Virus record (IMG/VR): IMGVR_UViG_3300021133_000001
Span: 76,181-140,180 of that record
Source: a virus
Lineage: Duplodnaviria; Caudoviricetes
Strand: one strand, 5' to 3'
DNA: 64,000 bases
Shown piece after piece: positions 3,059 to 38,150 of this stretch. The stretch's first letter is position 1. Each line of letters begins with the position of its first letter. Under the pieces are notes generated by a model, which worked only from the letters and a program-made list of their open reading frames with translations, searched no databases and was not told the origin of the DNA. Made by a program: the position numbers and the translations under genes.

Positions 3059-3904
3059 TTATACTACCTTATCTGGAAAGCATTTTTTAGCATCATCATG
3101 CAATAATTGTATATTTTGCATGGTGGTAAACTCTTTAAAATGCTCAATAATTGGAGTAACATCTAAACCAAGCTCTATATGCCCTATAAAATAGTTTCTA
3201 ATTTTATTCTCTAAAGTAAGCGGATATTTTACACCATTAGGTCTGCCAAATCTATGCATCCATCTCAAAAAAGGTAAACATAAAGTTTTTTTACCAGCTC
3301 GGCGATATTTCTCATGTATGTAACCTTCTTCCCCACCAAAACCTCTAAAATTTGGATTGAAGCCTAGCCAACTATCTTTTCTACAAGCAAATAGCCCTAA
3401 ACCCTGCGCGGGTATCTCAAATGGTTCATTGTTAAGGTTTTTAGCACGTTCATTTGTTGCCCATATACCCCACATTTGGCTTCTCCACACTAAATCAAAC
3501 TGAGTGGCTATATTTTTTAAATCATCATATAACATTGGGCCCTGTAACAAATTACCGCTATCTTTACTTTGATCAAAAAAATCAATTAATTTTTTTATTG
3601 CGCCTGACTCTAATAATATATGGCAATCAATACACATTACGTAAGGAGTAGTTGCAAGCTCGAATATTTTTGTTCTTATAGCAGTACTGTTATATTCAGT
3701 AAATGGTACATATGTAACTAATTGCGGAAAAGAATATGTTAGGTTTTTAACCGCGGTACCATGAGAACTATTCGGGTTGTTATCTATTATTATAAATTCA
3801 ATATCATTTAAAACTTCTGAATGATACATACGTATAGCTTGTATAGTAAAGTATACTCCATCATAATCATCATATGTAGTAAAACCTATAGTGAGTTTTT
3901 TCAT
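3059..3904 (-). CDS. GT-A fold glycosyltransferase with DxH motif (GT2/GT27-like; resembles the catalytic domain of polypeptide GalNAc-transferases)
   Basis: LTIGFTTYD; IEFIIIDN; YVMCIDCH (DxH); GLGLFACRKDSW; FRGFGGEE; WMHRFGRP. Confidence 0.8.
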   Translation of the reverse strand: MKKLTIGFTTYDDYDGVYFTIQAIRMYHSEVLNDIEFIIIDNNPNSSHGTAVKNLTYSFPQLVTYVPFTEYNSTAIRTKIFELATTPYVMCIDCHILLESGAIKKLIDFFDQSKDSGNLLQGPMLYDDLKNIATQFDLVWRSQMWGIWATNERAKNLNNEPFEIPAQGLGLFACRKDSWLGFNPNFRGFGGEEGYIHEKYRRAGKKTLCLPFLRWMHRFGRPNGVKYPLTLENKIRNYFIGHIELGLDVTPIIEHFKEFTTMQNIQLLHDDAKKCFPDKVV

Positions 3905-3949
3905 TCTTAATTATAACTTATTATTAGTAATGAATTAAGCCAATATAGC

Positions 3950-4174
3950 TTAGCTGCGTAACTCTATCGTATCAGTGTCTTTTACGGTTAAATAAGTTTT
4001 ATCCGGAGATAAAATAACGTTTAGTATGTTATCTTTCTCTGTATAGGTAATTCCTGAAATTACAGTACTTGTACTATCTCTAACTATATAAAGTTTACTA
4101 GTAGAACCTTTAACCAAACTGCTTTTAAGAGCAGTTATAATAGCGTCTTTAGTTTTATCAATCGTAGTTGTCAT
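3950..4174 (-). CDS. Small hypothetical protein
   Basis: 74 aa ORF filling the gap between co-oriented genes; ATG start. Confidence 0.6.
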   Translation of the reverse strand: MTTTIDKTKDAIITALKSSLVKGSTSKLYIVRDSTSTVISGITYTEKDNILNVILSPDKTYLTVKDTDTIELRS

Positions 4175-4185
4175 TTTTTTATATA

Positions 4186-5619
4186 TTAACAGGAGCCGGT
4201 AGAACCATATGAAACTGAACCTTGTAATATGCTAGCGCTATTATCAGCTGCACAACCATTAAATGTAAATGGACCGCCTTGAGAATCAAAGTAGTATTGT
4301 GCACTACCGCCACATGGGGTCCAGTAGAACTCTACTTCATAATCGTCGCTATCATAGTTGTAAGTAGAATCCACACTTATCGTTAAACATGTCGAAGGCG
4401 GTGGTGTTGATGTAGTGGTGGTTGTCGTAGTGGTGGCGGCATTTACGGTTACATATATACTACCACTGCTTGTAATAGATGTATTTTCAGCAAGTCTGAC
4501 ATAACAAGTCCAAGTACCTGCATTATTTGTTTCAACAGGGTTCCAAACAAATTGATGTTGATTTGCATTTATGTTGCCTGTTTGCCAACCAGTTATATTA
4601 CCGCCGTTTTGATACCAATCAAATTGTGGGGTATAACCATCTGTGTGAGAAACTGTGCAACGTATTGCATATGGACCGACACCAGCTGTATAGGTAGGGT
4701 TACCAGACTGCCAGTTACTACCATCAAAGTATTCCATAGCTGTAACTGAAATAACAGGTGGTGGGGGTGTAGTTGTGGTCGTAGTAGTAGTTGTGGTAGT
4801 AGTTGTTGTAGTAGTAGTTGTTGTGGTTGTTACTGCAACGAAATTAGCTGTAATTGTACCGTTACCAGTAAGTGTTACTCCGGAAGTTGCATTATTTGGA
4901 CTTGCTATAGAAACTCCACCAGTGCTCGTCCAATTACTAAATACATAACCTGTACCTGCAGTAGCATGAATAATATTTGGCCCAGTTTCTGACTGATTAG
5001 ATGTGTTATTACATTGAGTACCGTTTATACAAGCTGTTGAAGAACCGCCACCGTTTGCAGCTACCATAGTAATACTATATGTAGCAGGCGTGGTTGTAGT
5101 AGTGGTAGTGCTACCAGCATAATTAGCTGTCAAAGTAACTGGCCCGCCATTAATGGTTACGTTTGTTGAGGTACTGGAAGCATTAGCAAAAGTAGCATCT
5201 CCAGAAGGAGTAGCTGTCCAACCTGTAAATGTACCTGTACCGGTTGCAACTAATGAACCTACGTGACCGACTTGTACACCAAGTATAAATGTACTACCGT
5301 CCATAGTACCGTTAACGACAGTTACAGAATACAAAGGCGGGTTAGTAGTGGTAGTTGAAGTAGTGGTAGTTGTAGAAGTAGTGGTAGTTGTAGAAGTAGT
5401 GGTAGTTGCATTAATATCTTTAAAAACATACCTCATATCAGTACCACCCACTTTATAACCTGTGTTATAGCCTAAATCTCCACCACCAGCTGTTTCATAT
5501 CTTTGAGCAAAATCCTGACCGTTTACTTTATAACCAGTATTAGACCCAGCAGTCCCTACTCTTGCCATAAAAACACTGTCAAGATCAGTACCGTTGGAAA
5601 GTTTGTAGTTCGAGGCCAT
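4186..5619 (-). CDS. Putative fibre-tip adhesin: N-terminal repeated attachment motif, Ig-like/beta-sandwich modules separated by poly-Thr linkers
   Basis: N-terminal (N/T)GYKVxGxD repeats; four Thr-rich runs, one ending in PPPP; two related ~75 aa modules (FxxWT...A/SxTxVTxxGxxTxTANY/F); Ig-like YAIRC...FDWYQNG...NAGTWTCYV. Start overlaps the stop of the upstream S74 fibre gene (TAATG). Confidence 0.7.
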   Translation of the reverse strand: MASNYKLSNGTDLDSVFMARVGTAGSNTGYKVNGQDFAQRYETAGGGDLGYNTGYKVGGTDMRYVFKDINATTTTSTTTTTSTTTTTSTTTTNPPLYSVTVVNGTMDGSTFILGVQVGHVGSLVATGTGTFTGWTATPSGDATFANASSTSTNVTINGGPVTLTANYAGSTTTTTTTPATYSITMVAANGGGSSTACINGTQCNNTSNQSETGPNIIHATAGTGYVFSNWTSTGGVSIASPNNATSGVTLTGNGTITANFVAVTTTTTTTTTTTTTTTTTTTTTPPPPVISVTAMEYFDGSNWQSGNPTYTAGVGPYAIRCTVSHTDGYTPQFDWYQNGGNITGWQTGNINANQHQFVWNPVETNNAGTWTCYVRLAENTSITSSGSIYVTVNAATTTTTTTTSTPPPSTCLTISVDSTYNYDSDDYEVEFYWTPCGGSAQYYFDSQGGPFTFNGCAADNSASILQGSVSYGSTGSC

Positions 5620-8600
5620 TATCTAGCTTCAAGTACTTTAACTCTTTCATTTAATGTCTTAACCGCTTCAATTAATAGCGCTGTAAGACGGCCGTAATCA
5701 ACACCTGTAGCTTCTCCTGTATAAACATCTTTACTTACTACTGTAGGTAATACTTCGTTTACGTCTTCAGCAATTAAACCAATATCATTTACCACATCTT
5801 TATTATTCCAATCAAAAGTGACGCCTTGTAATTTTGTTACAGTTTCAATTGCACTTACAATAGGTGATATATTAGTTTTCCATTTACGAGAAGAGCTTGT
5901 ATTATATGTACCTGCTGTAACTGTTCCTGCTACGTTTAAATTACCTGCATTACTACCATTTCCATTGTTTTGTATATCAACTAGACCGTCATAGTTGATT
6001 TTCATTCTGATTGTGTTTGCACCACCACCTAAATCCGGACCAGTAGCAAATCTTATGTAACCGCCAGAGGCAGCACCTGCATTAAGACTTAATACGCCCG
6101 GTACAACACTACTATTACCTGCAAAGTCAATTTGCGCGCCATTACTAATACCGTTGCTTTGACCACCTGTGACTGTTAATACCCCGCTATTATTTATATA
6201 ACGTAAACCTACATAAGAACTTACTATAACGCCGTCATCTGTTTGTATACCGTGTATAGATAGGTTACTACCATCCCATCGCATATAACTACTAGAGTTA
6301 CCGATATCAAACTTAGCTGTACCGCTAACATCTCCTAACCAGAAACCAGTACCAGAACCGTAACTTGATTTACCTTGATATACTGCATTTCCACTATTAT
6401 TAGCTATAGCAACACTACCATTAATAGTTAATGTAGATGTGTCCCAAGTTAAGTTGCTACCTAATGAGAATTTACCAGTATTTTCAGCATAGAAACCAGC
6501 AACTCCATAGCCACCGGAACCAGCCATTAAATATGTACTTGCTATTGTAATGCCACCTACTGAACCGCCAGTTAGACCTAAGCTCTTACCTGTTTGTCCG
6601 CTTTGTAAAGCAGAGTTAGCATTGTTAATAGACGTTGAAGTTACTTGCGTACTACCACCAACATAAATCGTGCCTTTTACTGTTAAAGTTGAACCATCCC
6701 AGTATATTGAATTTGCACCAGTACCGTTAAATGCAAAAGTACCATCATTCTTTATATATGTGTTAAATGCACCGCTAGTATAATAACCCATATAGGTTTG
6801 ACCTAAAAATAAACCGCTACCAGAAGGAGCTGCATCAATTACTAGCTTACCGTTACTATCGGTCTTTACTTTACCGGATAATGTGGATACGTTACTATTA
6901 GCTGTATTAGCAGTACCTAAAGCTGTACTTGCATTACTATTAGCTGTACTTGCGTTACTATTAGCTGTAGCAATGTCTGTAGCAGCTTGACCTCCAGTTA
7001 TATTAATAGCACCATTAATAGTTAAGTAACCGTTTGCCCAGGTTAAGGAATCTCCGTTAGGACCAGATAGGTAAAAGTTACCATTATTGGCCATATACGT
7101 TTTCCATGCACTACCATTATAATAACCTAAATTATTAGAGCCTAAATATAAACCTGCAGTGCTTGGACTTGGAGTTTTTACGATAGCACCTGTACTATCA
7201 GTGAATACTGCAGAAGCCGTTGGTGAAACCGCGTTATTAGCAATAGTTGTAGCGGTTGATGTACTTACTGCAGCAGAACCGTCTGTTAAATATAAGCTAC
7301 CTTTAAGTGTCAAGCTAGAACCATCCCACCATAAATAGTTTCCTGTAGCACTAAGTGTATAACTACTTGTTAAGCCTGTACTACCTAATAACATATTAAA
7401 TGTAGGGGTAGAAGTACCAGCTTTTTTGTACCATTTAAATGAATCGCCTAGATAAAGTACTGCTTGACTTACATTTGAACGATCTGAAGCAGCTGTAGTA
7501 CCATTTAAAAAGAATGGAGTATCTGCTGTACCAGCTGCACTTGGAACACCGGTATATAATGTATTTTGATACATACCCACACCAGCAATAGAGCCGTATG
7601 TAGCAGTAATACCACCAGATACGTTCATGTAGTTTGTTCCGCCTGCTCTAAAATACTTTAAGGTATTACCTAATGTAAAATAAGTACGATCTGAAGTGCC
7701 GTTGTCGTAGGAACCGTTTAAATAGAATGGTGTGTCAGCAGAACCAGCAGCTGAAGCAACACCTGTATATACTGCACCTGTAGCAATACCAACACCACCG
7801 ATGGAACCGTATGTAGCTGTTATACCACCAGATACGTTCATATAATTTGTACCACCCACTCTAAAATATTTTAGAGTGTTACCTAAAGTCATGTATGTAC
7901 GATCTGAATAACCATCATCATATGAACCGTTAACGTAAAACGGAGTGTCTGCTGTACCAGCTGCACTTGCAACACCTGTATATATTGCACCAGCTGCAAT
8001 ACCAACACCACCGATGGAACCGTATGTAGCTGTTATACCACCAGATACGTTCATATAATTTGTACCACCGGCACGGAAATACTTTAACGTATTACCTAAA
8101 GTCATATAGGTACGATCTGAATGACCGTCATCAACTGTACCGTTTACATAAAATGGAGTATCTGCTGTACCAGCTGCACTAGCAACACCAGTATAAATAG
8201 AACCTTGTGTTAAACCAACACCACCAATAGAACCAGCATTTGCAAATATAGTACCAGATAGTTGTAACTGACCAGTATCTCCTCTATATAAGAAACCGTT
8301 GTTTGGATAGTTACCTACAAAGAAATAAGCATTACCATCAGTGTAGTTACCCATCCACACTCCATGTGAACCGGATGTGCCTGGCCAATCTGCATTAGCT
8401 GTACGAATAAAACCAGCAGAAAGGTCCCCTACTGTACCTAATACAATACCTTGAGTAACTGATACGTCTTGTGCTAATAATAAGTCTGTAGCTACACTTG
8501 CGAAGTTTTCACCAAATGAAGCCCAATCAGCTGTATCTACTCCTGGTATACCCCAGCCTGTATAGCCTGAGAACGAATCGCTACTTAAAGTGGTACTTCT

Positions 8601-9215
8601 AGCTATATAATAATTAATTTTACCACCACCAGAATAACCTGCAACGTCAACCCGAGAAGGTGTATCGTAGTAAATGTAATTTGGACCTCTATAATAACCT
8701 GTATAAACTAAGCCAGGTCCTGGGTTACCATTATTTGCACCAGGCGGTCCTGAAAAACCTGATTTACCGCTTACACCACTAAAGCCTGAACTACCAGTAA
8801 AGCCTGAAAAACCTGAATTACCGTTAAAACCAGAATAGCCTGTTGAACCTTGAAAACCAGAAAAGCCTGAATTGCCTTGAAAACCAGAATAGCCCGTTGA
8901 ACCTTGAAAACCAGAAAAGCCTGAATTACCGTTAAAGCCAGAAAACCCTGAACTACCAGGAATACCTTGAGGTCCAGCTGCTGTACTTGCTGCACCTTGT
9001 GCACCTGTTGATCCTTGAGCGCCTGGTGCTCCAGAAAAACCAGAAATACCTGTACCACCTGGGCCTATACCTTGAGTGCTTAACCAAGCTAACGTCTGTG
9101 CCAAAGACATTCTGTATGTTTTTGGATCTGTTTCGCTCTTAGAAACTGGTATTGAAATATCCTGAGAAACTGTTCCAGTTGGAACTGGTGGTAAATCTGT
9201 AATTTTAAGAGGCAT
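5619..9215 (-). CDS. Long tail fibre with N-terminal Gly-X-Y tract, 71-aa tandem repeats and C-terminal peptidase S74 intramolecular chaperone
   Basis: C-terminus TSSSRKWKTNI...LQGVTFDW...IGLIAEDV...[15 protein letters not shown]; repeated WDGSxLTxxG fibre motifs; GFS/GYS triplets near the N-terminus. Confidence 0.9.
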   Translation of the reverse strand: MPLKITDLPPVPTGTVSQDISIPVSKSETDPKTYRMSLAQTLAWLSTQGIGPGGTGISGFSGAPGAQGSTGAQGAASTAAGPQGIPGSSGFSGFNGNSGFSGFQGSTGYSGFQGNSGFSGFQGSTGYSGFNGNSGFSGFTGSSGFSGVSGKSGFSGPPGANNGNPGPGLVYTGYYRGPNYIYYDTPSRVDVAGYSGGGKINYYIARSTTLSSDSFSGYTGWGIPGVDTADWASFGENFASVATDLLLAQDVSVTQGIVLGTVGDLSAGFIRTANADWPGTSGSHGVWMGNYTDGNAYFFVGNYPNNGFLYRGDTGQLQLSGTIFANAGSIGGVGLTQGSIYTGVASAAGTADTPFYVNGTVDDGHSDRTYMTLGNTLKYFRAGGTNYMNVSGGITATYGSIGGVGIAAGAIYTGVASAAGTADTPFYVNGSYDDGYSDRTYMTLGNTLKYFRVGGTNYMNVSGGITATYGSIGGVGIATGAVYTGVASAAGSADTPFYLNGSYDNGTSDRTYFTLGNTLKYFRAGGTNYMNVSGGITATYGSIAGVGMYQNTLYTGVPSAAGTADTPFFLNGTTAASDRSNVSQAVLYLGDSFKWYKKAGTSTPTFNMLLGSTGLTSSYTLSATGNYLWWDGSSLTLKGSLYLTDGSAAVSTSTATTIANNAVSPTASAVFTDSTGAIVKTPSPSTAGLYLGSNNLGYYNGSAWKTYMANNGNFYLSGPNGDSLTWANGYLTINGAINITGGQAATDIATANSNASTANSNASTALGTANTANSNVSTLSGKVKTDSNGKLVIDAAPSGSGLFLGQTYMGYYTSGAFNTYIKNDGTFAFNGTGANSIYWDGSTLTVKGTIYVGGSTQVTSTSINNANSALQSGQTGKSLGLTGGSVGGITIASTYLMAGSGGYGVAGFYAENTGKFSLGSNLTWDTSTLTINGSVAIANNSGNAVYQGKSSYGSGTGFWLGDVSGTAKFDIGNSSSYMRWDGSNLSIHGIQTDDGVIVSSYVGLRYINNSGVLTVTGGQSNGISNGAQIDFAGNSSVVPGVLSLNAGAASGGYIRFATGPDLGGGANTIRMKINYDGLVDIQNNGNGSNAGNLNVAGTVTAGTYNTSSSRKWKTNISPIVSAIETVTKLQGVTFDWNNKDVVNDIGLIAEDVNEVLPTVVSKDVYTGEATGVDYGRLTALLIEAVKTLNERVKVLEAR
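7500..8236 (-). repeat. 213-bp (71-aa) coding tandem repeat, about 3.5 copies
   Basis: Equivalent positions at 7588, 7801 and 8014 are 213 bp apart; unit GSIGGVG...YTGVASAAGTADTPFY.NG...SDRTY.TLGNTLKYFR.GGTNYMNVSGGITATY. Confidence 0.9.
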
Positions 9216-17168: not shown

Positions 17169-17226
17169 AATAGTATTGGTTACATATTATTTAGTAAACC
17201 TAATACTATTTTAACTTATTATTTTA

Positions 17227-17880: not shown

Positions 17881-17897
17881 AGTTCTATGATAAGTTA

Positions 17898-19274: not shown

Positions 19275-19311
19275 AACTATATTTTAATATAGTTTTTTAT
19301 TTTTTCCAGCT

Positions 19312-19578: not shown

Positions 19579-19582
19579 ATTA

Positions 19583-20584: not shown

Positions 20585-20595
20585 TTATTATATAT

Positions 20596-24678: not shown

Positions 24679-24691
24679 GGTTTAAAGTTAT

Positions 24692-25756: not shown

Positions 25757-25757
25757 A

Positions 25758-26828: not shown

Positions 26829-28007
26829 TTACTTTTTAACTAAACTTTTTAGTTCTTCTATTTGAGCTTGCTGTTCTTTTATTGCTTCAATAAGAAGAGG
26901 TATAATTTTTTCGTACTGCACTGTTTTAAAGTTATTACCGGACTTAGAACTAATTGTACCGTCGTTGTTTACTAATACATCAAACGGTGCAGGTTTAATT
27001 ACTTCTGGTAATACTTCTTCTACTTCTTGAGCAATAACACCTACTTGTAATTCATCGGAAGTATAACCGTACTGTTTAGCGGTTTCGTTATTAGTGTAAT
27101 ATACACCGTTTAAAGATAATACTTTAGGTAGAGCACCGCTAATATTACTCTTAATATCTTTAAGTCTCTTATCTGAATAGTAAGCTGCAACATTGCCTGT
27201 TGCATATACACTACCGTAAACTGTTAAACTACCAGAAACACCTACGTTACCGTAAATGTTACCACCAGATGTTCTAAAAATTAGAGAAGGATCAACTACA
27301 GGTGTAGCTGCAACCCATTGACTGTTGTACCAAACGTTTAATACGCCTGTATCTGAATTCCACCACAGGTAGCCGTTTGCAGCACCGCTAGGGGTACCGT
27401 TATTAACACCACTTTGTACTATAGCATTATTACTAATGCCTTGAGAGCCTTGAGCGCCCTGCGCTCCTGAACCAGTTGCACCTTGAGAACCAGTGGAACC
27501 AGTAGCCCCTTGAGCTCCTGTTGCTCCTTGTGCGCCAGTAGAACCAGTGGAACCAGTAGCCCCTTGAGCTCCTGTTGCTCCTTGTGCGCCAGTAGAACCA
27601 GTTGAACCAGTAGCCCCTTGAGCTCCTGTTGCTCCTTGAGCACCATTAGATCCGTTACTACCTGTTGCGCCTTGAGCACCGGTGGAACCTTTAGCTCCTT
27701 GTGCGCCTGTAGCCCCTTGGGCACCTGTTGCACCTGTAGCACCTTGAGCACCGTTTTGCCCGGTTGTACCGTTAACACCTTGTGCTCCTTGAGCGCCTGT
27801 AGCACCTTGAGCGCCGTTTAAACCATTTACGCCTGATATACCTTGAGCACCTTGAGCACCTTGTAATCCGGTATAACCTTGAGGTCCAATTGCGCCTTGT
27901 GCACCTTGAGAACCAGTTTGTCCTGTTTGACCGGTTGCACCTTGCGGGCCTTGAGTGCCTGAAAATCCTGAAGCTCCTTGTATACTATATGTAAACGGTG
28001 TAGCCAT
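26829..28007 (-). CDS. Collagen-like fibre with C-terminal S74 chaperone
   Basis: About 60 GAQ/GAT/GST triplets; [13 protein letters not shown]...W module; YSDKRLK...[15 protein letters not shown]...[16 protein letters not shown]. Confidence 0.9.
27487..27638. repeat. 54-bp near-exact tandem repeat (~2.8 copies) within the collagen tract
   Basis: gaaccagtggaaccagtagccccttgagctcctgttgctccttgtgcgccagta at 27487 and 27541; partial copy at 27595 with one mismatch. Confidence 0.9.
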
Positions 28008-28016: not shown

Positions 28017-30941
28017 TTAACTTAATCTTGCACTTAACTGTGCTATTAAAGTATTTTGATTATTTATTTGTACTTGTTGTTCTTTAATAGCTTCTACTAG
28101 TAAAGATGTTAAACGACTGTAATCAATACCGATATAGTTTCCGGCGCTATCTGGGTCATCATAAACTACTTCTGGAACTATATTTACTGTATCTTCTGCA
28201 ATAAGCCCTATATCGTTTGGATCGGTTTTAAGAGTGTTATCATACCATACACCAGATAATTGTAGTACTCTATTTAAAGAATTGGTTAATGGTCGTATAT
28301 TAGTCTTAAAACGTCTAGATGAAGTAGAAGTAAATGAATAAGCTGTAATACCAAGAGATGTTGATATAGCACTACCATTATCAGTAATAGAACTATTAGT
28401 TACTGTGGTTGAACTGTTAAACTTAGCAACAACATTTGAAGTACCGCCTGAACCAGCAGCTGCACCTTGTGCGCCTGTAGCTCCCTGTGCACCTGTTGAT
28501 CCTGTAGCACCTTGTGCACCGGTAGAGCCTGTAGCACCTTGTGCGCCTGTAGCACCTTGTGCGCCGTTAGAACCGTTTGTACCAGCTGCACCTTGTGCAC
28601 CATTCGTACCAGCTGCACCTTGAGCGCCTGTAGAACCAGTAGAGCCTTTTAAGCCAGAATAACCTGAAGCGCCTTGAGCGCCAGTAGAGCCTGTAGCGCC
28701 TTGAGCGCCTGTTGCACCTTGAGCGCCAGTAGAACCTGTAGAACCTGTTGCACCTTGAGCGCCAGTAGAACCTGTAGAACCTGTTGCACCTTGAGCTCCT
28801 GTAGAGCCTTTAGCACCAGAGTAACCAGAGTAACCAGAGTTTGATCCTGCTGCTTGAATTTGTGAACCAGGATACTCAACAATTAAACCTGCTGTAGTAC
28901 CTATACCGATCATAACCGGTTTAATGATTGAACCTACAGCTGATGGGGGTGTTGTGGTCATTAGACCTGCTGTTGCGTCTGAAAGATAATATTGTGCAGC
29001 ATCTACTATACCTGTAAAGCCTGAAGTATAACCGTTAGCTACATACTGGAAAGAAGTACCAGTAGCGCTTACTACTACACCGATAATATCTGACGTGCTT
29101 GGGCTGTTGGCTTGTGCTAATGCATAACCACCAGATGTCTTGTATATAACATTACCCGGACTAAAAGAGTTGCTATATGTTACATTTACATTAGTAGCAT
29201 TTAAACCGCTTATACCAGAAAAACCAGATACACCTGAACCACTAAAACCACTAAAGCCTGAGTAACCAGAAACACCGCTAAAGCCTGAAATACCGCTAAA
29301 ACCTGATTGACCAGAAATACCACTGAAACCAGATATACCACTAAATCCTGAAATACCTGTATAGCCAGAATATCCTGTAATACCGCTAAAGCCTGAGATA
29401 CCAGAGAAGCCTGATATACCACTAAAACCGGACCAGCCTGATATACCGCTCGCTCCTGATATACCGCTAAAACCACTAATACCTGTAAAGCCTGAATAAC
29501 CAGAGATACCGGAGAAACCTGTTATACCACTAAAACCGGACCAACCACTGATACCGCTAAAGCCTGAAATACCGCTGAAACCACTTATACCTGAAAAACC
29601 AGAAAAGCCTGTGAAGCCACTATAACCAGATATACCGCTAAAACCTGAAATACCTACACCAGAATAACCTGATGTACCAGACACACCCTGACCGATTGGG
29701 GTACGTACTACAGTAAACTGCGAACTACCGTTATATTGGTAAGCAGCAGTAAGTGTTGTTGTACTTGTTGTATAAGCTGCAACTTGTAATAAGATACGAT
29801 CTGTTGCAGAAAGAATTGTAATATTGCTTGTAGCGTACTGTACTTTTTGATAGGTTGAAGTAGTATCTGTAACGGCACCGGAATCGGCGCTTAAAATAAA
29901 TGCACTCGTGGCACTAGTTGCCATTGAGTAACTATAAATGCTAAATACAAAATTAGCTGTACCACCTAAAGCGTAACGATAAAATTCTATATCCCATAAA
30001 CCTGCAGGTATTTCTGTTATACCAGGTTCACCGATTGGTGTTAAGTACCAACCGAAAGCACTTGGACTGCCTGGACCTGCTGTAGTAGAATTAAGAGCTA
30101 GTTGGTCGTCATTAACTGTCGTACCACCACCGCCTGGCTGTAAAGCCATAACTTCAAACACAGCAGGGTTTTGATCACTAGTTACTTCCTGTAAGAAATA
30201 CGTTCTACCATATACAGATGCGCCTGTGCCACCTGACCAACCCGAAATACCACTAAAGCCGCTGATTCCGCTAAAACCACTTATACCACTAAAGCCAGAC
30301 CAGCCTGATACACCACTTGCACCAGATATACCGCTAAAACCGGATATACCACTAAAACCGCTGAAGCCAGAATAACCGCTGACACCACTGAAACCACTTA
30401 TACCTGTATAACCGGAATAGCCAGAAATACCTGTAAAACCTGAATAACCTGATATACCGCTAAAACCAGACCAGCCTGATATACCACTAAAACCTGATAC
30501 ACCACTCGCTCCTGATATACCGCTGAAACCACTTATACCTGAAAAACCAGATATACCACTTGCGCCAGATATACCACTGAAACCAGAAAAACCTGAAATA
30601 CCTGTATAACCGCTATAACCGGAAATACCGCTAAAACCACTTATACCTGAAAAACCAGACCAACCGGATATACCGCTAAAGCCTGAAATACCTGTATAAC
30701 CACTATAACCGGATATACCACTAAAGCCAGAAAAGCTCGAGTAACCGCTATAACCGGAAATACCAGAGAATCCACTTATACCACTAAAGCCAGAAAAGCC
30801 TGAAATACCAGTAAATCCAGAATAACCGGAAGCACCCTGTGCACCAGTAGAGCCTTTTGCACCTTGCGCACCTGTTACGCCAGTAGTACCTGAGTAACCA
30901 GACTGTCCCTTAATCGCTGTGTATACAAATGTATTGCTCAT
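28017..30941 (-). CDS. Gly-X-Ser/collagen-like fibre with two globular domains and C-terminal S74 chaperone
   Basis: Two long [12 protein letters not shown] tracts, shared GRTY...TPIGQG domain, FSPGNVIY...IIGVV domain, GAQ/GAT tract, TSSRRFKTNIRP...IDYSRLTSLLVEAIKE. Confidence 0.9.
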   Translation of the reverse strand: MSNTFVYTAIKGQSGYSGTTGVTGAQGAKGSTGAQGASGYSGFTGISGFSGFSGISGFSGISGYSGYSSFSGFSGISGYSGYTGISGFSGISGWSGFSGISGFSGISGYSGYTGISGFSGFSGISGASGISGFSGISGFSGISGASGVSGFSGISGWSGFSGISGYSGFTGISGYSGYTGISGFSGVSGYSGFSGFSGISGFSGISGASGVSGWSGFSGISGFSGISGFSGISGWSGGTGASVYGRTYFLQEVTSDQNPAVFEVMALQPGGGGTTVNDDQLALNSTTAGPGSPSAFGWYLTPIGEPGITEIPAGLWDIEFYRYALGGTANFVFSIYSYSMATSATSAFILSADSGAVTDTTSTYQKVQYATSNITILSATDRILLQVAAYTTSTTTLTAAYQYNGSSQFTVVRTPIGQGVSGTSGYSGVGISGFSGISGYSGFTGFSGFSGISGFSGISGFSGISGWSGFSGITGFSGISGYSGFTGISGFSGISGASGISGWSGFSGISGFSGISGFSGITGYSGYTGISGFSGISGFSGISGQSGFSGISGFSGVSGYSGFSGFSGSGVSGFSGISGLNATNVNVTYSNSFSPGNVIYKTSGGYALAQANSPSTSDIIGVVVSATGTSFQYVANGYTSGFTGIVDAAQYYLSDATAGLMTTTPPSAVGSIIKPVMIGIGTTAGLIVEYPGSQIQAAGSNSGYSGYSGAKGSTGAQGATGSTGSTGAQGATGSTGSTGAQGATGAQGATGSTGAQGASGYSGLKGSTGSTGAQGAAGTNGAQGAAGTNGSNGAQGATGAQGATGSTGAQGATGSTGAQGATGAQGAAAGSGGTSNVVAKFNSSTTVTNSSITDNGSAISTSLGITAYSFTSTSSRRFKTNIRPLTNSLNRVLQLSGVWYDNTLKTDPNDIGLIAEDTVNIVPEVVYDDPDSAGNYIGIDYSRLTSLLVEAIKEQQVQINNQNTLIAQLSARLS

Positions 30942-30967: not shown

Positions 30968-30972
30968 TACCA

Positions 30973-33900
30973 TTATACTATAAACCAGTTAGTACCGTTA
31001 TATACAATAGTGGTTGCTTCGTAGTTATAGTTTAATAGATAAGTAGCTTGACCGTCAATTGTTACCCCTGCACCAGATAACGTAATGTTATTTGTGCGAG
31101 CTGCACCAGATTCGTCTTTAATTGTTATAAATGTACCTTGATTTAATGGTAGAGCTGGCAAGTATAATAAAGCACTTCCAGAGACATTAACACCTACATA
31201 TTCGTCAGTTGACTGTAATACGTTTGGTGAAGTTGTTACTAATCTTACACCTTGAACGTTTGGATATATAATCTGTGAATTATCGAGATTTAAGTAACCA
31301 CGTTCGTTTACAACAACTGCTGTTGTAGATGTAACAGCTCTCATGATTGGCTTCGACACTGTACCGAAAGCACTTGGTGAAACTGTTGTAACACTACCTG
31401 CAATAGTTGGTGATAGGTAATAACATTCCCCTGGTGTCAAGCTTGCAAGACCTGTAATTAAGCCCATGTATACGATTGTAAATGTTGTACCTGTTGAAGA
31501 TTGAACAACACCGGTTGCTTCAGCATCTGTTACATTGTCTGCTTGAGCTAAGAACCAACCACTTGAACCGTTGTCAAGACGTACCACGTTACCAGCACTG
31601 AATGTGTTGGTATATGTAATGACTTGACTTGAAATGTTTACTGTAGTACCAGAGATACCTGAGAAACCAGATATACCGCTAAAGCCGCTATAACCGGAAA
31701 TACCAGAGAAGCCCGATATACCAGAAGCGCCAGACCAGCCTGAAATACCACTAAAGCCTGATATACCGCTAAAGCCGCTAATACCGCTAAAGCCTGAAAT
31801 ACCAGAAAAGCCGGAGTAACCAGAAATACCCGAGAAACCAGATATACCGCTAAAACCGCTGTAGCCACTAATACCGCTAAAGCCAGACCAGCCGCTAATA
31901 CCTGAGAAACCGCTAATACCAGTGAAACCACTGATACCTGTAAAGCCTGAATAACCAGACCAACCAGAGATACCGCTAAAGCCGCTTATACCGCTAAAGC
32001 CGGAGTAGCCTGAAATACCAGAGAAGCCGCTATAGCCACTTATGCCACTAAAGCCAGACCAACCACTGATACCGCTGAAACCGCTAATACCGGTAAAGCC
32101 TGAGAAGCCAGAGTAGCCTGAGATACCAGAGAAGCCTGAGATACCACTAAAGCCGCTATAGCCACTAATACCGCTAAAGCCCGATATACCAGAGAAACCA
32201 GAATAACCTGACCAACCACTGATACCACTAAAGCCTGATATACCAGTAAAGCCTGAGAAGCCGCTTATACCGCTAAAACCACTATAGCCTGAAATACCGC
32301 TAAAGCCTGATATGCCCGAGAAACCGGACCAACCGCTAATACCAGAGAAGCCTGAAATACCAGAGAAGCCACTTATACCGCTAAAGCCAGAGTAACCAGA
32401 TATACCGCTGAAGCCTGACCAACCAGAAATACCTGAGAAACCAGATATACCAGAGAAGCCAGACCAACCAGAAATACCACTAAAGCCTGAGGTACCAATA
32501 CCGCTAAAGCCGGAGAAACCTGAACTACCACTTACACCTTGACCGATTGGCGTACGTAAAGCGGAATATATTGAACTACCATTGTAATGGTAAGTAGCAG
32601 TAATTGTTGATGTGCTTGTTGTATAAGCTGCAACTTGTAATAAGATACGATCTGTTGCAGAAAGCTTTGTAATCGTGCTTGTAACGTAACCTAATTTTTG
32701 GAAAGTTGAAGATGTATCTGTAACAGGACCTGAATCAGCACTTAAGATAAATGCGCTAGTAGCGCTTGTAGCCATTGAGTAACTATATACGCTAATAACA
32801 AAGTTTGCTGCGCTAGCAGAAACGTTACGATAGAAATCGAATTCCCACAAACCAGCTGGAATTTCAACTAAGCCTGGTTCCCCAATTGGTGTTAAGTACC
32901 AACCGTAAGCGCTTGGGCTACCTGGACCTGCTGTGGTAGAGTTAAGAGCTAATGCGTCATCGTTTACGTCTGTACCACCACCGCCTGGCACTAACGACAT
33001 TACTTCAAATACTGTTGGGTTTTGATCGCTTGTTACTTCTTGTAGGTAGTATGTTCTACCGTAAATGGATGCACCGGTACCACCAGAGACACCAGACCAA
33101 CCACTAATACCACTGAAACCACTAATACCGGTAAAGCCACTATAACCGGAAATACCACTAAAGCCTGAAATACCGCTAAAGCCGGAGTAACCAGAAATGC
33201 CTGAGAAACCGCTAATACCAGTAAAGCCTGACCAACCGCTAATACCTGAGAAACCTGAAATACCAGTATAGCCAGAATAGCCTGAAATACCGCTAAAGCC
33301 GCTTATACCGCTAAAGCCTGAGATACCAGAGAAGCCAGAATAACCTGACCAACCGCTAATACCGCTAAAACCACTTATACCTGTATAGCCTGAGTAGCCG
33401 GAAATACCGCTAAAGCCTGACCAACCAGAGATACCAGAGAAGCCAGACCAGCCTGATATACCGCTGAAACCGCTTATACCTGTAAAACCTGAAATACCAG
33501 AAAAGCCTGAGAAGCCAGAATAACCTGAAATACCAGACCAACCAGAAATACCGGTATAGCCTGAATAACCGCTAATACCCGTAAAGCCGCTATAACCGGA
33601 AATACCTGTAAAGCCGGACCAGCCTGAAATACCACTAAAGCCGGAAATACCAGAGAAGCCCGAGAAGCCAGTGTAACCACTAAAACCGGTGAAGCCAGAA
33701 ATACCGCTAAAACCGCTAATACCAGTGTAGCCAGAATAACCTGAAATACCTGTAAAGCCTGAATAGCCTGAAATACCAGAGAAGCCGGACCAGCCACTAA
33801 TACCGCTGAAACCGCTTATACCTGTAAAACCTGACCAACCTGAAATACCACTAAAGCCGCTAATACCTGTAAAGCCTGAAATACCAGAAAAGCCACTATA

Positions 33901-34089
33901 GCCGGAAATACCGGAGAAGCCGGACCAACCAGAGGTACCACTGATACCACTAAAGCCGGACCATCCGCTAATGCCTGAGGCTCCGGAATAACCGCTTGTG
34001 CCGGTTGCGCCTTGTGCACCTGTTGCACCGTTTGCGCCAGAGAAACCTGATTGACCTCTAATTGCTGTGTATACGAAGGAATTTGCCAT
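30973..34089 (-). CDS. Gly-X-Ser repeat fibre protein (no S74 domain)
   Basis: Two ~300-residue G-[F/I/Y/W]-[S/T] tracts flanking the shared domain; C-terminal FSAGNVVRLDNG domain and IKDESG...TIDG...YNGTNWFIV domain. Confidence 0.9.
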   Translation of the reverse strand: MANSFVYTAIRGQSGFSGANGATGAQGATGTSGYSGASGISGWSGFSGISGTSGWSGFSGISGYSGFSGISGFTGISGFSGISGWSGFTGISGFSGISGWSGFSGISGYSGFTGISGYSGYTGISGFSGISGFTGFSGYTGFSGFSGISGFSGISGWSGFTGISGYSGFTGISGYSGYTGISGWSGISGYSGFSGFSGISGFTGISGFSGISGWSGFSGISGWSGFSGISGYSGYTGISGFSGISGWSGYSGFSGISGFSGISGFSGISGYSGYTGISGFSGISGWSGFTGISGFSGISGYSGFSGISGFSGISGYSGFTGISGFSGISGWSGVSGGTGASIYGRTYYLQEVTSDQNPTVFEVMSLVPGGGGTDVNDDALALNSTTAGPGSPSAYGWYLTPIGEPGLVEIPAGLWEFDFYRNVSASAANFVISVYSYSMATSATSAFILSADSGPVTDTSSTFQKLGYVTSTITKLSATDRILLQVAAYTTSTSTITATYHYNGSSIYSALRTPIGQGVSGSSGFSGFSGIGTSGFSGISGWSGFSGISGFSGISGWSGFSGISGYSGFSGISGFSGISGFSGISGWSGFSGISGFSGISGYSGFSGISGFSGFTGISGFSGISGWSGYSGFSGISGFSGISGYSGFSGISGFSGISGYSGFSGFTGISGFSGISGWSGFSGISGYSGFSGISGYSGFSGISGFSGISGWSGYSGFTGISGFTGISGFSGISGWSGFSGISGYSGFSGISGFSGISGYSGFSGISGFSGISGFSGISGFSGISGWSGASGISGFSGISGYSGFSGISGFSGISGTTVNISSQVITYTNTFSAGNVVRLDNGSSGWFLAQADNVTDAEATGVVQSSTGTTFTIVYMGLITGLASLTPGECYYLSPTIAGSVTTVSPSAFGTVSKPIMRAVTSTTAVVVNERGYLNLDNSQIIYPNVQGVRLVTTSPNVLQSTDEYVGVNVSGSALLYLPALPLNQGTFITIKDESGAARTNNITLSGAGVTIDGQATYLLNYNYEATTIVYNGTNWFIV

Positions 34090-34145: not shown

Positions 34146-37100
34146 TTAAACTAAATTCCATCTATTGCCGTAATATACTAAGCTTATTGTTTCATACGGG
34201 GATGTAATTTGGTCAAAAGTGTATCCGTCAATGGTGTCTGGATATGTAGCAGATATTGTAATAGTATTTGTAGTATCATTAGCTAATCCTGTCATATCTT
34301 TAATAGAATATGCTTTACCATTATAACCAACTGGTAGAGTAATGGTAGAAGGTCCGTTGTATTGTACACCAATGTAATAGTCTGTAGGTACAGCTGTATA
34401 GTATTGATTAGTAACGCCTGTTACGTTTACAGAACCACCTAATGCAGAGTCGTTTGAATTTAATATACCTCTTTCATTAACAACAACACCCACATTTGAT
34501 GTAATTGCACGTAGTATTGGTTTTGAAACAGTACCTGTAGCACTAACTACTGCAGTTGTAATAGCACCAGGAACATCTGGGGATAAGAAATAGCATTCCC
34601 CTGGATTTAATAGTGGTTGATCAAATGTTATTAAACCGTTATATACTATATAGAAGTCGTAAGCAGAAGCATATTGTACAACACCAGTTGCTTCAGCATT
34701 TTGAGGTGTATTAGCCTGGGATAAGAACCAACCGCTATTACCGTTATCAAGTCTTACTACTTGACCTGCACTAAAACTATTACTATAAGTTATTAACTGA
34801 CTAGAAATATTAACAGGCGAGCCACTATAACCGGATATACCGCTAAAGCCCGAGAAACCAGAAATACCGCTATAACCCATTATACCGGAATAACCGCTAA
34901 AGCCAGACCAACCAGATATACCTGAGAAACCATCTATACCGCTATAACCTGAAAAACCGCTTATACCAGAAAAACCTTGTACACCTTGATAACCACTAAA
35001 GCCTGACCAACCACTAGAGCCTGAAGTACCGGAATCGCCTTTTACTTGACCAACATTAGTCCAGGTACCACCAGCATGTACCCATAAATCACCAGAAGTT
35101 TCATCTATAACACCGTTACCGTCAACTGCTGATGAGAACGCGGCGTTTAAAGTTTGTTGTGGGTCGCCAGGTGGGTTAACATTAGCGTCTGGTACAGTAC
35201 CAATAATAGCAACTGAAGAACCGTTAACACCAGAGTAACCAGAAAGACCTACATCGCCTTGTGCACCTTGCGGTCCAATATCTCCTTGAGAGCCTTGGGA
35301 ACCTTGGAAGCCTTGATCTCCCTGTGCACCTTGGGGTCCGGTATCGCCTTGATTACCTTGCGGTCCAATATCACCTTGAGCGCCTTGTGGGCCGAAGTCG
35401 CCTTGTGCACCTTGATAACCTTGTGCACCTTGTGAGCCGACATCCCCTTGATAGCCTTGAGGTCCTATATCCCCTTGCGCACCTTGTGGGCCGAAACCTG
35501 AATAACCAGATACACCAGAACCGCTAAAACCTGAGAAGCCAGATATACCAGTAAAGCCTGAGAAGCCACTATAACCTGACCAACCAGATACACCTGTATA
35601 ACCAGAATAACCCGATATACCACTATCCCCACTGAAACCGGAAATACCGCTAAAGCCACTAAAGCCGCTTGTACCGGTAAAACCGCTTATACCGCTAAAG
35701 CCTGAAAAACCAGAATAACCTGAAATACCAGACCAACCAGAATCACCTGTGAAACCTGATATACCGCTAAAACCGGACCAACCAGATGTTCCAGAGATGC
35801 CCGAAAAGCCTGATATACCACTGAAGCCTGACCAGCCGCTTATACCACTAAAGCCTGATATACCTGAAGCACCTGAAATACCGCTAAAACCAGATATACC
35901 GCTAAAGCCCGACCAACCGCTTATACCTGTATAACCAGATATACCGGAGAAGCCTGATATACCTGAAAAACCACTTATACCGCTAAAGCCTGATTGACCA
36001 GAATAACCAGAATAACCTGATACACCAGAACCACTGAAACCAGATATACCTGATTGACCAGAGAAGCCTGAGTAACCAGAAATTCCTGAGAAGCCAGATA
36101 TACCACTAAAACCGCTTATACCTACAAAGCCTGAGTAACCGCTAAAGCCTGAAATACCGCTTGCGCCAGACCAACCAGAGGTACCAGAGTCACCTTTTAC
36201 TTGACCTACATTAGTCCAGGTACCGTTTGTATATACCCATAAATCGCCAGTATTTTCATCTATAACACCGTTACCGTTTACGGCGCCTGGGAATGCAGCG
36301 TTTAAAGTAGCTTGTGCGTTACCACCTACAGTAGGTACTGTACCAATAATAGTAACTGAAGTACCGTCTTTACCACTATAACCAGACTTACCACTAGTAC
36401 CACTAAAACCACTTATACCACTAAAACCAGAAATACCTGAAAAACCTGAGTAACCAGATATACCAGAAAAGCCTGATATACCGCTAAAGCCTGATATACC
36501 AGAAGCACCGCTAAAGCCGCTATAACCAGTTATGCCGCTAAAACCGGACCGACCCGAAATACCGCTAAAGCCTGAAGTGCCGGAAGCGCCACTTATACCA
36601 CTAAAACCACTAATACCGCTAAAGCCTGATTGACCGGTATAGCCCGAGTAACCAGATATACCACTGAAACCTGATATACCACTTGCGCCAGATATACCAC
36701 TAAAGCCCGAGTAACCAGAAGTACCTGAAGCACCACTTATACCGCTAAAGCCTGACTGACCCGAATAACCTGAATAACCAGACCAGCCTGAAATACCGCT
36801 AAAGCCTGATTGACCGCTGTAGCCACTATAGCCAGAAATACCACTAAAACCGGAAATACCTGATTGACCGGTAAAGCCTGAGTAACCGCTAAAACCTACA
36901 TAACCGCTGAAGCCGCTGTAGCCGGAAATACCGCTAAAGCCCATATAGCCGGAGTACCCAGAAAAGCCTGAATAACCAGACGTACCGGAGTAACCCATAT
37001 CACCGCTATAACCGGAAATACCGCTATAACCAGAAGTACTATCACCACTAAAACCTGAAATACCTTGATCGCCTTGTGCACCTTGAGGGCCTGTAGCACC

Positions 37101-38150
37101 ACTATAACCAGACGCGCCATCTTTACCATCTGAACCTAAAGTAAGGTTAGTTACAAACCTACTATAATGATTTGTACCAAGATACCAATATGTAATGTCA
37201 ACACCACCACCTGCATTAGGGTCTGAGGTATCTGTTGTTTGACCAAATACGCTTATCTTAATTCTGTCAGATAAGTTTAAAGGTATTGGGGTATCAATAT
37301 AATATGATGTTCTTTGGAATGTCGGTGTAGGTGTTCTTGTTAATGCATCACCTGTTACCGAAAACAACATTGTTTCATTGTCGCTTGGATCTACCTTGTA
37401 AACAGCGTAAGTTAAATGAGTATTAACGCCTGGATCCATTGCATGTGGACCAGACATTGAATAATACGTATCAAAGTACCAAGTACCAGTATTAATTAAC
37501 GACTTATTAGGAGAACCTGTAAGCGTAATTGTATATAATATTGGAGCAGGGTTTTGAAGGTAATTAAAATAACCGGAATCATCTGCAGCTTCAGCAGCAT
37601 CTTGAGGCTCTGGAGTTAAAAATACATCGTTTGGTACGTCTGCAGCAATATTAGTTGGGTATAATATTAGACCAACAACTGATTGACCAGAATAGCCAGA
37701 CTTACCACTATAACCGGATAAACCTAAACCTGAAAAACCAGAATAACCACTAGCACCGCTTATACCACTAAAACCAGAAGTACCGGAACTGCCTTGTGCT
37801 CCTTGTGCACCTTGTGCTCCGTTAATACCGGAGTAACCAGATGCACCAGTGTCTCCTTGCGGACCGGTAGGTCCTTGAGGGCCCATGTCACCTTGCGCAC
37901 CAGGAGGCCCACCTGCTGACAAAGCAGAAATTGCTACCGAGTAAGTTGTATATGAACCGTCATTATTGACTTGCTCCAAGAACGTTAGATCGTTCGTTGT
38001 AATGTTTGGGGCTTGAGAAAGTTCGTGTGGAAATACAATAGACGGTACTACATTGCTTCCGGCTGTAGTTGTTGCACCCGAAACACCATAATCATTAAGT
38101 GCGGATAATTCGTTTACATATACTATAGTGGGGTATTGCGGAACCGGCAT
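34146..38150 (-). CDS. Gly-X-Ser/collagen-like fibre protein next to the neck gene
   Basis: GFS/GIS/GYS tracts, an acidic GPQ/GAQ/GD tract, two copies of IIGTVP...GNGVIDExxGDLWVxxxGTWTNVGQVKGDSG; C-terminal domains homologous to 30973..34089. Confidence 0.9.
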   Translation of the reverse strand: MPVPQYPTIVYVNELSALNDYGVSGATTTAGSNVVPSIVFPHELSQAPNITTNDLTFLEQVNNDGSYTTYSVAISALSAGGPPGAQGDMGPQGPTGPQGDTGASGYSGINGAQGAQGAQGSSGTSGFSGISGASGYSGFSGLGLSGYSGKSGYSGQSVVGLILYPTNIAADVPNDVFLTPEPQDAAEAADDSGYFNYLQNPAPILYTITLTGSPNKSLINTGTWYFDTYYSMSGPHAMDPGVNTHLTYAVYKVDPSDNETMLFSVTGDALTRTPTPTFQRTSYYIDTPIPLNLSDRIKISVFGQTTDTSDPNAGGGVDITYWYLGTNHYSRFVTNLTLGSDGKDGASGYSGATGPQGAQGDQGISGFSGDSTSGYSGISGYSGDMGYSGTSGYSGFSGYSGYMGFSGISGYSGFSGYVGFSGYSGFTGQSGISGFSGISGYSGYSGQSGFSGISGWSGYSGYSGQSGFSGISGASGTSGYSGFSGISGASGISGFSGISGYSGYTGQSGFSGISGFSGISGASGTSGFSGISGRSGFSGITGYSGFSGASGISGFSGISGFSGISGYSGFSGISGFSGISGFSGTSGKSGYSGKDGTSVTIIGTVPTVGGNAQATLNAAFPGAVNGNGVIDENTGDLWVYTNGTWTNVGQVKGDSGTSGWSGASGISGFSGYSGFVGISGFSGISGFSGISGYSGFSGQSGISGFSGSGVSGYSGYSGQSGFSGISGFSGISGFSGISGYTGISGWSGFSGISGFSGISGASGISGFSGISGWSGFSGISGFSGISGTSGWSGFSGISGFTGDSGWSGISGYSGFSGFSGISGFTGTSGFSGFSGISGFSGDSGISGYSGYTGVSGWSGYSGFSGFTGISGFSGFSGSGVSGYSGFGPQGAQGDIGPQGYQGDVGSQGAQGYQGAQGDFGPQGAQGDIGPQGNQGDTGPQGAQGDQGFQGSQGSQGDIGPQGAQGDVGLSGYSGVNGSSVAIIGTVPDANVNPPGDPQQTLNAAFSSAVDGNGVIDETSGDLWVHAGGTWTNVGQVKGDSGTSGSSGWSGFSGYQGVQGFSGISGFSGYSGIDGFSGISGWSGFSGYSGIMGYSGISGFSGFSGISGYSGSPVNISSQLITYSNSFSAGQVVRLDNGNSGWFLSQANTPQNAEATGVVQYASAYDFYIVYNGLITFDQPLLNPGECYFLSPDVPGAITTAVVSATGTVSKPILRAITSNVGVVVNERGILNSNDSALGGSVNVTGVTNQYYTAVPTDYYIGVQYNGPSTITLPVGYNGKAYSIKDMTGLANDTTNTITISATYPDTIDGYTFDQITSPYETISLVYYGNRWNLV

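Follow-up and report, generated by a model that had tools for sequence, protein, structure and literature searches.

A probable mosaic host-recognition island with candidate enzyme-partner modules in an uncultured T4-like myovirus

Layout of the island and its collagen-like fibres

Host-recognition islands of abundant aquatic phages are rich in enzymes without an assigned role. Here we analyse one such island in a 64-kb window (the whole stretch of DNA under study: 64,000 nucleotides, positions 76,181 to 140,180 of IMG/VR record IMGVR_UViG_3300021133_000001), which forms the final part of a 140-kb viral contig with a CheckV completeness of 44%. The block at 3059-38150 interleaves seven collagen-like fibre genes with a glycosyltransferase (GT), a flavin halogenase, a 2-oxoglutarate (2OG) oxygenase and a fusion of a U32-fold domain to an O-methyltransferase (MT) domain, hereafter U32-MT (Table 1). 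We propose that it is probably a mosaic, in which two enzyme-partner modules and one unrelated halogenase/oxygenase insertion are embedded among the fibres.

Every non-nested open reading frame (ORF) of at least 80 aa across 3-39230 lies on the minus strand. TerL, a head-closure-like gene and the sheath/baseplate genes border the island: TerL itself (40274-42058) is 34% identical to its cyanomyovirus counterpart and is followed, on the plus strand, by sheath, tube and baseplate genes of the T4 type. Indels relative to the nearest relatives are present in the island, megablast of 14000-38000 against isolated phages returned no match, and a domain scan found no replication-family domain in the 3059-38150 block. 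The block is thus a variable island within the structural module, with fibres mixed with unrelated enzyme genes, and we regard it as the hypervariable (hyperplastic) host-recognition island of an uncultured T4-like myovirus, a type already published, such islands and their enzymes having been described before (PMC7029224, PMC3037559). An initial annotation, made from the sequence alone, had read the same block as a virion-fibre decoration system, and its inventory stands up well: a co-oriented 35-kb island with seven Gly-X-Y fibres and without replication genes, several adhesins (the InlB/Ig, LamG and GGGW proteins and the propellers), and, by Pfam and motifs, a DxH GT, a halogenase, a 2OG oxygenase and the transporter-like DUF401 protein.

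Pfam Collagen matches in the seven fibre ORFs have E values of 2e-11 to 7e-102. Five of the seven also carry a C-terminal Peptidase_S74 domain, a self-cleaving chaperone; in the remaining two, at 30973-34089 and 34146-38150, Collagen is the only Pfam family found. Together the fibres comprise 1008 G-X-Y triplets, in which the Y position is Ser in 61%, Gln in 16%, Thr in 14%, Lys in 0.9% and Pro in 0.8%, and the X position is Phe in 22%, Ala in 20%, Ile in 19%, Tyr in 12.5%, Trp in 3.6% and Pro in 2.5%. The hundreds of potentially modifiable residues pointed out in the initial annotation are therefore indeed there, at about 760 Ser/Thr and 390 Phe/Tyr/Trp positions. Island fibres of other phages (loci L015, L019, L098 and L101) are built instead of G-P-T triplets, with Pro at about 50% of X and Thr at about 55-65% of Y, so that proline-rich G-P-T and the proline-poor G-[FIYW]-S of this window represent two very different fibre solutions.

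Among the fibres sits the small Cys-rich protein of the initial annotation, which is the 77-aa DUF6171 ORF and not the Cys-free 88-aa ORF; its position is kept in the related loci L005 and L009. Small Cys-rich DUF6171-like ORFs also adjoin 2OG oxygenase or halogenase genes in L002 (S-RIM2), L098 and L113.

Table 1. Features of the island and its left edge, in window coordinates
Position	Strand	Feature	Basis
3-3032	-	LamG protein, adhesin-like	domain match
3059-3904	-	GT-A glycosyltransferase (Pfam GT2), 281 aa, single domain, DCH replacing DxD, invariant GFGGEEGYIHEK motif	Pfam, E 4.5e-7
3950-4174	-	74-aa ORF between poly-Thr protein and GT, without family match	
4186-5619	-	InlB-B-repeat/Ig-like protein with poly-Thr/Ser tracts of 21, 8, 21 and 10 residues; candidate GT acceptor	
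5619-9215	-	collagen-like fibre, C-terminal S74 intramolecular chaperone	Pfam
11319-14939	-	collagen-like fibre, 789 residues in G-X-Y runs, S74 end	Pfam
15998-16231	-	DUF6171 small Cys-rich protein, 77 aa, CxxC...CxxCGC...CP	family match
16248-17168	-	short collagen-like fibre, S74 end	Pfam
17208-20606	-	3.4-kb indel cassette: 2OG oxygenase, halogenase, 88-aa ORF, GGGW protein	relatives without the segment
17227-17880	-	DUF6445/2OG oxygenase	Pfam
17898-19274	-	Trp_halogenase-family enzyme, 458 aa	Pfam, E 6.6e-86
19312-19578	-	88-aa Cys-free ORF	
19583-20584	-	333-aa Gly-rich adhesin-like protein, fibrinogen-like YCDxxxxGGGW-type motif	NCBIfam GGGWT_bact, E 8e-4, below cut-off
20596-21663	-	DUF401/TIGR00529 polytopic membrane protein, transporter-like	family match
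21678-23312	-	U32-fold TIM barrel fused to COMT/TrmR-type O-methyltransferase domain, 544 aa	Pfam and structure model
23299-24009	-	236-aa helical protein u236 (phrog_1409), obligate U32-MT partner	
24013-24678	-	221-aa protein, second small cassette partner; TATAAATA late-promoter motif just upstream at 24689	
24692-26825	-	two paralogous Kelch-like beta-propellers (phrog_1417)	structure match, TM ~0.75 to Kelch domains
26829-28007	-	collagen-like fibre, S74 end	Pfam
28017-30941	-	G-[FIYW]-S-rich collagen-like fibre, S74 end; upstream TATAAATA motif at 30960	Pfam
30973-34089	-	collagen-like fibre (G-[FIYW]-S), without S74	Pfam
34146-38150	-	collagen-like fibre, 1334 aa, without S74	Pfam

The glycosyltransferase, the propeller cassette and their partners

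The GT, whose DCH lies at residues 93-95, has 293 relatives in viral contigs and no homologue among 50,697 isolated-phage records. D93-x-H95 and GFGGEEGYIHEK (GFGGEEGY) are invariant in 30 homologues. Its sole PDB sequence match, a weak one to human GalNAc-T7 (E 0.05), covers the GFGGEEGYIHEK region, and a profile search gives the N-terminal half of TarP instead (E 0.0013); the likeness to mucin-type transferases is one of motifs only.

To place each enzyme in context, up to 80 related viral loci with flanks of 10 kb on either side were compared, the GT relatives being 56-73% identical. Two genes upstream of the GT, the InlB-B-repeat/Ig-like protein is the only ORF in the 140-kb contig with at least eight consecutive Ser/Thr residues. 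An ORF with such a run is present in 59 of 80 GT loci vs. none of 159 control loci, namely those fetched with the halogenase and U32-MT (Fisher p 2e-38), and in 47 loci it directly precedes the GT, co-oriented and often 12-56 bp away. When the measure is at least 12 Ser/Thr in 15 residues, 49 of 74 upstream genes score vs. 23 of the remaining 1378 ORFs of these loci (Fisher p 1e-54). Once the tracts are masked, 28 clusters without sequence relationship to one another (65-1353 aa) can be distinguished among the upstream genes, and 21 of these carry tracts; a Pfam scan of ten poly-Ser/Thr neighbours returned only one weak beta-helix match. The gene upstream of the GT has thus been replaced repeatedly yet has stayed tract-bearing, which is the pattern that an enzyme-acceptor pair predicts. 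Judged from these sequence patterns, the GT most likely O-glycosylates the poly-Ser/Thr tracts of its neighbour, here the protein encoded at 4186-5619. That protein (window 4186-4260) and an 88-aa ORF 19 kb upstream (contig 61000-61266) share an N-terminal MASNY...G.DLD..F motif, which may be a common attachment module.

The second enzyme, U32-MT, has a single sequence-model match, Methyltransf_24 (not Methyltransf_3) at residues 383-496. Its N-terminal 375 aa gave no Pfam or PDB match either by phmmer or with a 49-member profile, and none of the 49 family members matched the Pfam Peptidase_U32 or U32_C models. The U32 link is exclusively one of fold: a model of the domain (mean predicted confidence, pLDDT, 90) is closest to the U32 peptidase Mk0906 (5d88), with a Z score of 17.2 and a root-mean-square deviation of 3.1 Å over 226/247 residues, the next fold scoring 13.4, and Mk0906 is also the top Foldseek match. 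The term U32/methyltransferase fusion, as used in the initial annotation, is thus valid as a statement about predicted folds and not as sequence-based family membership; one distant family member, from an uncultured Mediterranean phage, has been deposited as ‘peptidase U32’. Within the family C316, C320, C323 and C326 (CxxxCxxCxxC) are invariant and E190, C192, C196, H202 and C225 nearly so. Enzymes of the U32 family bind a 4Fe-4S cluster through four conserved Cys, and the Cys clusters here suggest a metal or Fe-S enzyme. The spacing of the U32 signature is C-x6-C, whereas the motif here is C-x3-C (NEGCVGGCP). The MT domain (pLDDT 91) aligns at Z 16-17 with a mycobacterial O-MT, MeT1, TrmR, SpnH and CCoAOMT/COMT, all of them tied, and its invariant D112, D140, D141 and N143 would suit, in their spacing, the Asp/Asp/Asn metal triad of such O-MTs.

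TrmR methylates the 5-hydroxyuridine (ho5U) made by TrhP, giving 5-methoxyuridine (mo5U) in tRNA. Because this TrhP-TrmR logic matches the fused architecture, U32-MT probably, by analogy, adds a hydroxyl group to an aromatic or heteroaromatic substrate and then O-methylates it. RlhA and TrhP hydroxylate C5 of RNA pyrimidines using prephenate (PMC5727448, PMC6599085).

U32-MT travels in fixed company. In each of the 58 viral loci that extend 3.5 kb or more upstream of U32-MT, hidden Markov models (HMMs) built here place a propeller, u236 and the second small gene within four genes of it; the HMM for the second small gene was seeded by position, and only the propeller and u236 counts are independent. 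The gene that follows is DUF401 in 13 of 65 loci, and in 16 of 25 DUF401 can be found within 8 kb. Phage isolates give 123 records with the propeller and 126 with U32-MT; the organism tallies are otherwise identical, the difference being three Ralstonia jumbo phages in which only the U32 part is present. Cyanophages S-RIM2, Syn19 and P-HM2 are among the isolates with the cassette. The P-HM2 homologues of the cassette are T4-GC351-354, which are listed among the genes differing between P-HM2 and the co-isolated P-HM1 (PMC3037559); the supplementary tables of that study carry no virion-protein flag for GC351-354, and S-PM2, Syn9 and S-SM1, for which virion proteomes exist, are absent among the cassette-gene matches listed. 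We found no published link between U32-like proteins and cyanophages, and a protein atlas search with u236 gave no lead.

The same gene set in the same order occurs in a Leptospirales metagenome-assembled genome (locus L165; CBDEUV010000002.1, 1847-10180), where ordinary bacterial genes follow it. There the propeller forms residues 1219-1501 of a 1523-aa DUF6519/LamG/DUF2341 protein (HMM E 1.8e-22; hhalign 97%; phrog_1417 E 1.6e-8), the u236 and second small protein homologues are found at E 5.5e-38 and 2.1e-17, respectively, the U32-like gene (E 7.5e-114, 34% identity) is without an MT domain, and DUF401 is 41% identical to that of the window (E 2.9e-129). Partner genes are missing at eight more distant spirochaete U32-like genes, and the bacterial evidence is thus this one locus. 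Its possible identity as a tail-like particle cluster was considered and dropped, as no Baseplate_J gene lies near it.

The cassette of propeller(s), two small proteins, U32-MT and usually DUF401 is inherited as a unit. From this we infer that the substrate of U32-MT is functionally tied to the propeller protein; it could be a propeller residue, a propeller-bound ligand, RNA, or a lipid or quinone handled together with DUF401. The most specific version, a dedicated maturation system in which a U32-type, oxygen-independent hydroxylase would modify a residue or ligand of a receptor-binding propeller and the fused domain would O-methylate the product, is something of a long shot. To our knowledge, U32 hydroxylation has so far been described only on RNA and quinones, and a protein-directed enzyme would, if real, extend the family beyond both and constitute a new class of chemistry common to hundreds of aquatic phages and at least one bacterium.

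The halogenase/oxygenase insertion

Four genes between DUF401 and the neighbouring short fibre form a segment with a separate history. The related loci L005/L246 and L009/L247 align with the window on both sides of 17208-20606 at 67-81% identity and have the segment itself missing, the gap lying between the DUF401 gene and the homologue of that fibre (col306). These relatives keep aromatic G-X-S fibres, with X positions in L005 occupied by Phe in 27%, Tyr in 23% and Trp in 1.9%; conversely, the fibres of halogenase-positive loci that have them (L098, L101, L120) show essentially no aromatics at X.

The halogenase carries GGGTAG at residue 7 for the flavin-binding GxGxxG motif and WMWQIP at residue 252 for WxWxIP; for the catalytic Lys and Glu, candidate KLGI and EPLEA segments are visible by inspection rather than from a residue-level alignment. 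Its best PDB match is 6nsd (E 6.8e-63), VirX1 (6qgm) following at E 2.9e-35; it falls about 70 aa short of solved Trp halogenases and shares only about 30-35% identity with the enzymes of phage isolates. The oxygenase has HKD at residues 93-95 plus later His residues, candidates for the HxD...H iron triad, and scores above the cut-off for DUF6445 and below it for 2OG-FeII_Oxy_3 and 2OG-FeII_Oxy_5; a pattern search found no close relative among viral contigs, and the PDB returned no sequence match.

Elsewhere, relatives of the halogenase lie in arrays of ~200-aa genes, where 20 kb can hold as many as five halogenase paralogues; of ten array proteins sampled from two loci (L103 and L093), eight are 2OG-FeII_Oxy_3, 2OG-FeII_Oxy_5 or DUF6445 by Pfam. 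Syn9 is arranged alike, its fibre genes gp32-34 being followed by two halogenases and an oxygenase array, whereas the halogenase of HTVC008M sits between a PhyH-type dioxygenase and TerL and that of Syn1 among talC, gnd, petE, hli and tRNA genes. Together, these sequence contexts suggest that the halogenase and the DUF6445 2OG oxygenase most likely act on something other than fibres.

Six of the array loci (L103, L104, L110, L111, L113 and L114) hold 10-15 densely arrayed paralogous ~200-aa genes with 2-5 halogenase paralogues interspersed, a scale that suggests a diversifying enzyme battery. The GGGW protein that completes the insertion has homologues adjoining the propeller/U32-MT cassette in P-HM2 and L008.

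Known systems, competing explanations and outlying genes

The host recognition cluster, the closest published counterpart, is a large non-syntenic island in the structural region, averaging 44.6 kb in pelagimyophages and 34.2 kb in cyanomyophages (Zaragoza-Solas et al. 2020, PMC7029224); its tail fibres and triple-collagen-repeat proteins are accompanied by ‘seemingly unrelated’ genes, glycosyltransferases among them. Related phages have been listed with prnA halogenases, which occur sporadically, and with several 2OG oxygenases, and it was proposed that these serve in nitrogen stress or in the repair of DNA (Sullivan et al. 2010, PMC3037559). The present island shares with these clusters a large size, poor synteny and structural setting, its fibres and collagen-repeat or lectin-domain proteins, and its GT, 2OG oxygenase and halogenase; it differs in being abutted by TerL and a head-closure-like gene and in the unusual density of its G-X-S/aromatic collagen fibres, of which there are seven. 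In the published reading the enzymes are unrelated cargo or modify the host surface.

We instead consider it probable that the island resolves into separately inherited units, two of its enzymes having fixed protein partners, so that it would consist of independently moving parts and not of one pathway. The fibre unit would supply seven trimeric collagen-like fibres, five of which are predicted to rely on a C-terminal S74 chaperone for folding and presumably lose it afterwards. The 3.4-kb insertion would have brought in a halogenase that looks catalytically intact together with the DUF6445 oxygenase, both belonging to the arrays common in marine and freshwater phages. In the cassette unit, a U32-fold Fe-S enzyme fused to a cation-dependent-type O-MT would hydroxylate and then O-methylate a propeller-tied substrate, and in the GT unit the DxH GT-A enzyme would O-glycosylate the poly-Ser/Thr tracts of its neighbour. 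This narrows a vague idea of ‘decoration’ to two specific questions, namely whether the GT acts on the poly-Thr protein and U32-MT on the propeller. Receptor-binding proteins that bear glycans or chemical caps would, if confirmed, affect host range, particle stability and the reading of virion proteomes.

Several points weigh against this mosaic reading. All of its substrates and all of its chemistry are deduced, from domain identities, an indel and co-occurrence statistics that are themselves observed. The contigs of the halogenase-less relatives are only 41-58% complete, and a copy could lie elsewhere in those genomes. The definition of a G-X-Y ORF used here (at least 6 triplets and at least 30 residues in runs) misses interrupted fibres. 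The compared loci are relatives, whose gene adjacency is partly inherited, a concern mitigated for the GT by the turnover of its upstream gene and for the cassette only by the single bacterial locus. A small-molecule role would account for the membrane protein of the cassette no less well than protein modification does, and the GT may act on host envelope glycans, the authors of PMC7029224 having read island GTs as modifiers of host O-chains.

These last two points lead to the strongest competitor, in which all of the enzymes are host-directed or metabolic cargo that simply collects in a plastic island: the GT would act on host O-antigen or envelope glycans, U32-MT on tRNA or rRNA (ho5U to mo5U) or on quinones, and DUF401 in small-molecule transport. 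Quinones are the substrates of UbiU/V acting with an O-MT, a membrane protein that looks like an obligate partner suggests traffic in small molecules, TrmR shares the top rank with others among the structural matches of the MT domain, and RlhA and TrhP, as characterised members of the U32 family, have RNA as their substrate (PMC5727448, PMC6599085). Such cargo leaves unexplained why poly-Ser/Thr tracts next to the GT outlast replacement by unrelated proteins (21 of 28 clusters), why U32-MT never occurs without the propeller (58 loci, 123 isolates) and why the propeller moved with it into a bacterium; the U32-like domain, moreover, has no match to Pfam U32 or U32_C. We consider this explanation rather unlikely, if worth keeping in mind.

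U32-MT can be compared with characterised enzymes. Like TrhP with TrmR, RlhA and UbiU/UbiV, it combines a U32-fold barrel bearing conserved Cys with a COMT-type O-MT; unlike TrhP and TrmR, both domains lie in one chain, U32 sequence models fail, an extra CxxxCxxCxxC cluster is present, and the gene is tied to a propeller, two small proteins and DUF401. For the GT, the GT27 polypeptide GalNAc-transferases offer a motif-level parallel in their DxH for DxD, their GGE-type motif, which is WGGEN-like in the Gal/GalNAc-T region, and their Thr-tract acceptors (a candidate acceptor here), from which the single-domain window enzyme departs in having no ricin-type lectin domain and in matching the generic GT2 enzyme TarP by profile. 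Freeman et al. in 2023 reportedly linked mycobacteriophage GT genes to the structural proteins that serve as their acceptors. Passages of PMC11256854 and PMC12363180 cite such phage-encoded O-glycosylation of mycobacteriophage virions. The GT gene of the window is likewise linked to a candidate acceptor; it belongs to another GT family with relatives only in uncultured aquatic phages, and what would be glycosylated is an Ig-like protein whose poly-Thr linkers are internal.

The initial annotation had gone further and proposed that the fibres, rich in Ser/Thr and in aromatic residues, are tailored by the GT, halogenase, 2OG oxygenase and U32-MT acting together, much as in a cluster for ribosomally synthesized and post-translationally modified peptides (RiPPs) with structural proteins as precursors. 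The enzyme genes are indeed co-oriented and interleaved with fibres that offer abundant Ser/Thr and aromatic positions, late-type TATAAATA motifs lie within the block at 24689 and 30960, and both peptide-directed Trp halogenases and viral collagen-modifying enzymes such as Mimivirus L230 exist (PMC9546862, PMC5802723). Yet a G-X-Y fibre lies within 10 kb of the halogenase in only 7 of 79 loci (9%), of U32-MT in 13 of 80 (16%), mostly close kin of this window, and of the GT in 3 of 80 (4%), leaving 91%, 84% and 96% of loci, respectively, without a nearby fibre of this kind. The halogenase/2OG segment is an indel absent from relatives that retain aromatic fibres, and the fibre triplets of halogenase-positive loci are without aromatics. 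The conserved partner differs from enzyme to enzyme, co-occurrence as a set is not seen, no recognition domain was found on the enzymes, and the candidate substrates, at 300-1300 aa, are structural proteins and unlike the short, leader-bearing precursors of RiPPs. The annotation had itself named independence from fibre type as grounds for abandoning the idea, and such independence, for the G-X-S fibres, is what the neighbourhood statistics show. Joint fibre tailoring thus appears highly improbable. What survives of the proposal is that island enzymes may be dedicated to neighbouring appendage-like proteins, for the GT with its poly-Ser/Thr protein and for U32-MT with its propeller; what does not is the choice of the collagen fibres as substrates.

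The Mimivirus L230/R699 collagen hydroxylase/glycosyltransferases (PMC9546862, PMC5802723) show that a virus can encode both collagen-like proteins and the enzymes that modify these; in the present island, fibre modification is only a proposal. Their acceptor is Lys at Y, which makes up 0.9% of that position in the window; classical collagen hydroxylation targets Lys and Pro, each below 1% of Y, and the 2OG enzyme here is of the DUF6445 type, not a lysyl hydroxylase. VirX1 and the cyanophage flavin halogenases share with the window's halogenase the Pfam family and a setting in phage variable regions, the 458-aa enzyme here being shorter than VirX1.

The U32 family was first named after collagenases, and the U32-MT gene does lie among collagen-like fibres, but a collagenase-type protease that processes them is hardly credible given cyanophage cassettes without nearby G-X-Y fibres, invariant Cys clusters that suggest a metal or Fe-S enzyme, and fibres that already bear self-cleaving S74 domains.

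Beyond the island, three further genes of the window are of note. An NTP_transf_2 nucleotidyltransferase-domain protein (42806-43882, plus strand) lies between TerL and the tail tube/sheath genes. A weak Glyco_transf_11 (fucosyltransferase-like) match at 61234-62151 (plus strand; E 7e-4, below cut-off) would give the phage a second sugar enzyme, this one outside the island. Finally, beyond the baseplate genes, a 422-aa protein on the minus strand (62532-63800) has its SPASM domain (residues 9-75) preceding Radical_SAM (residues 122-296), the reverse of the usual order.

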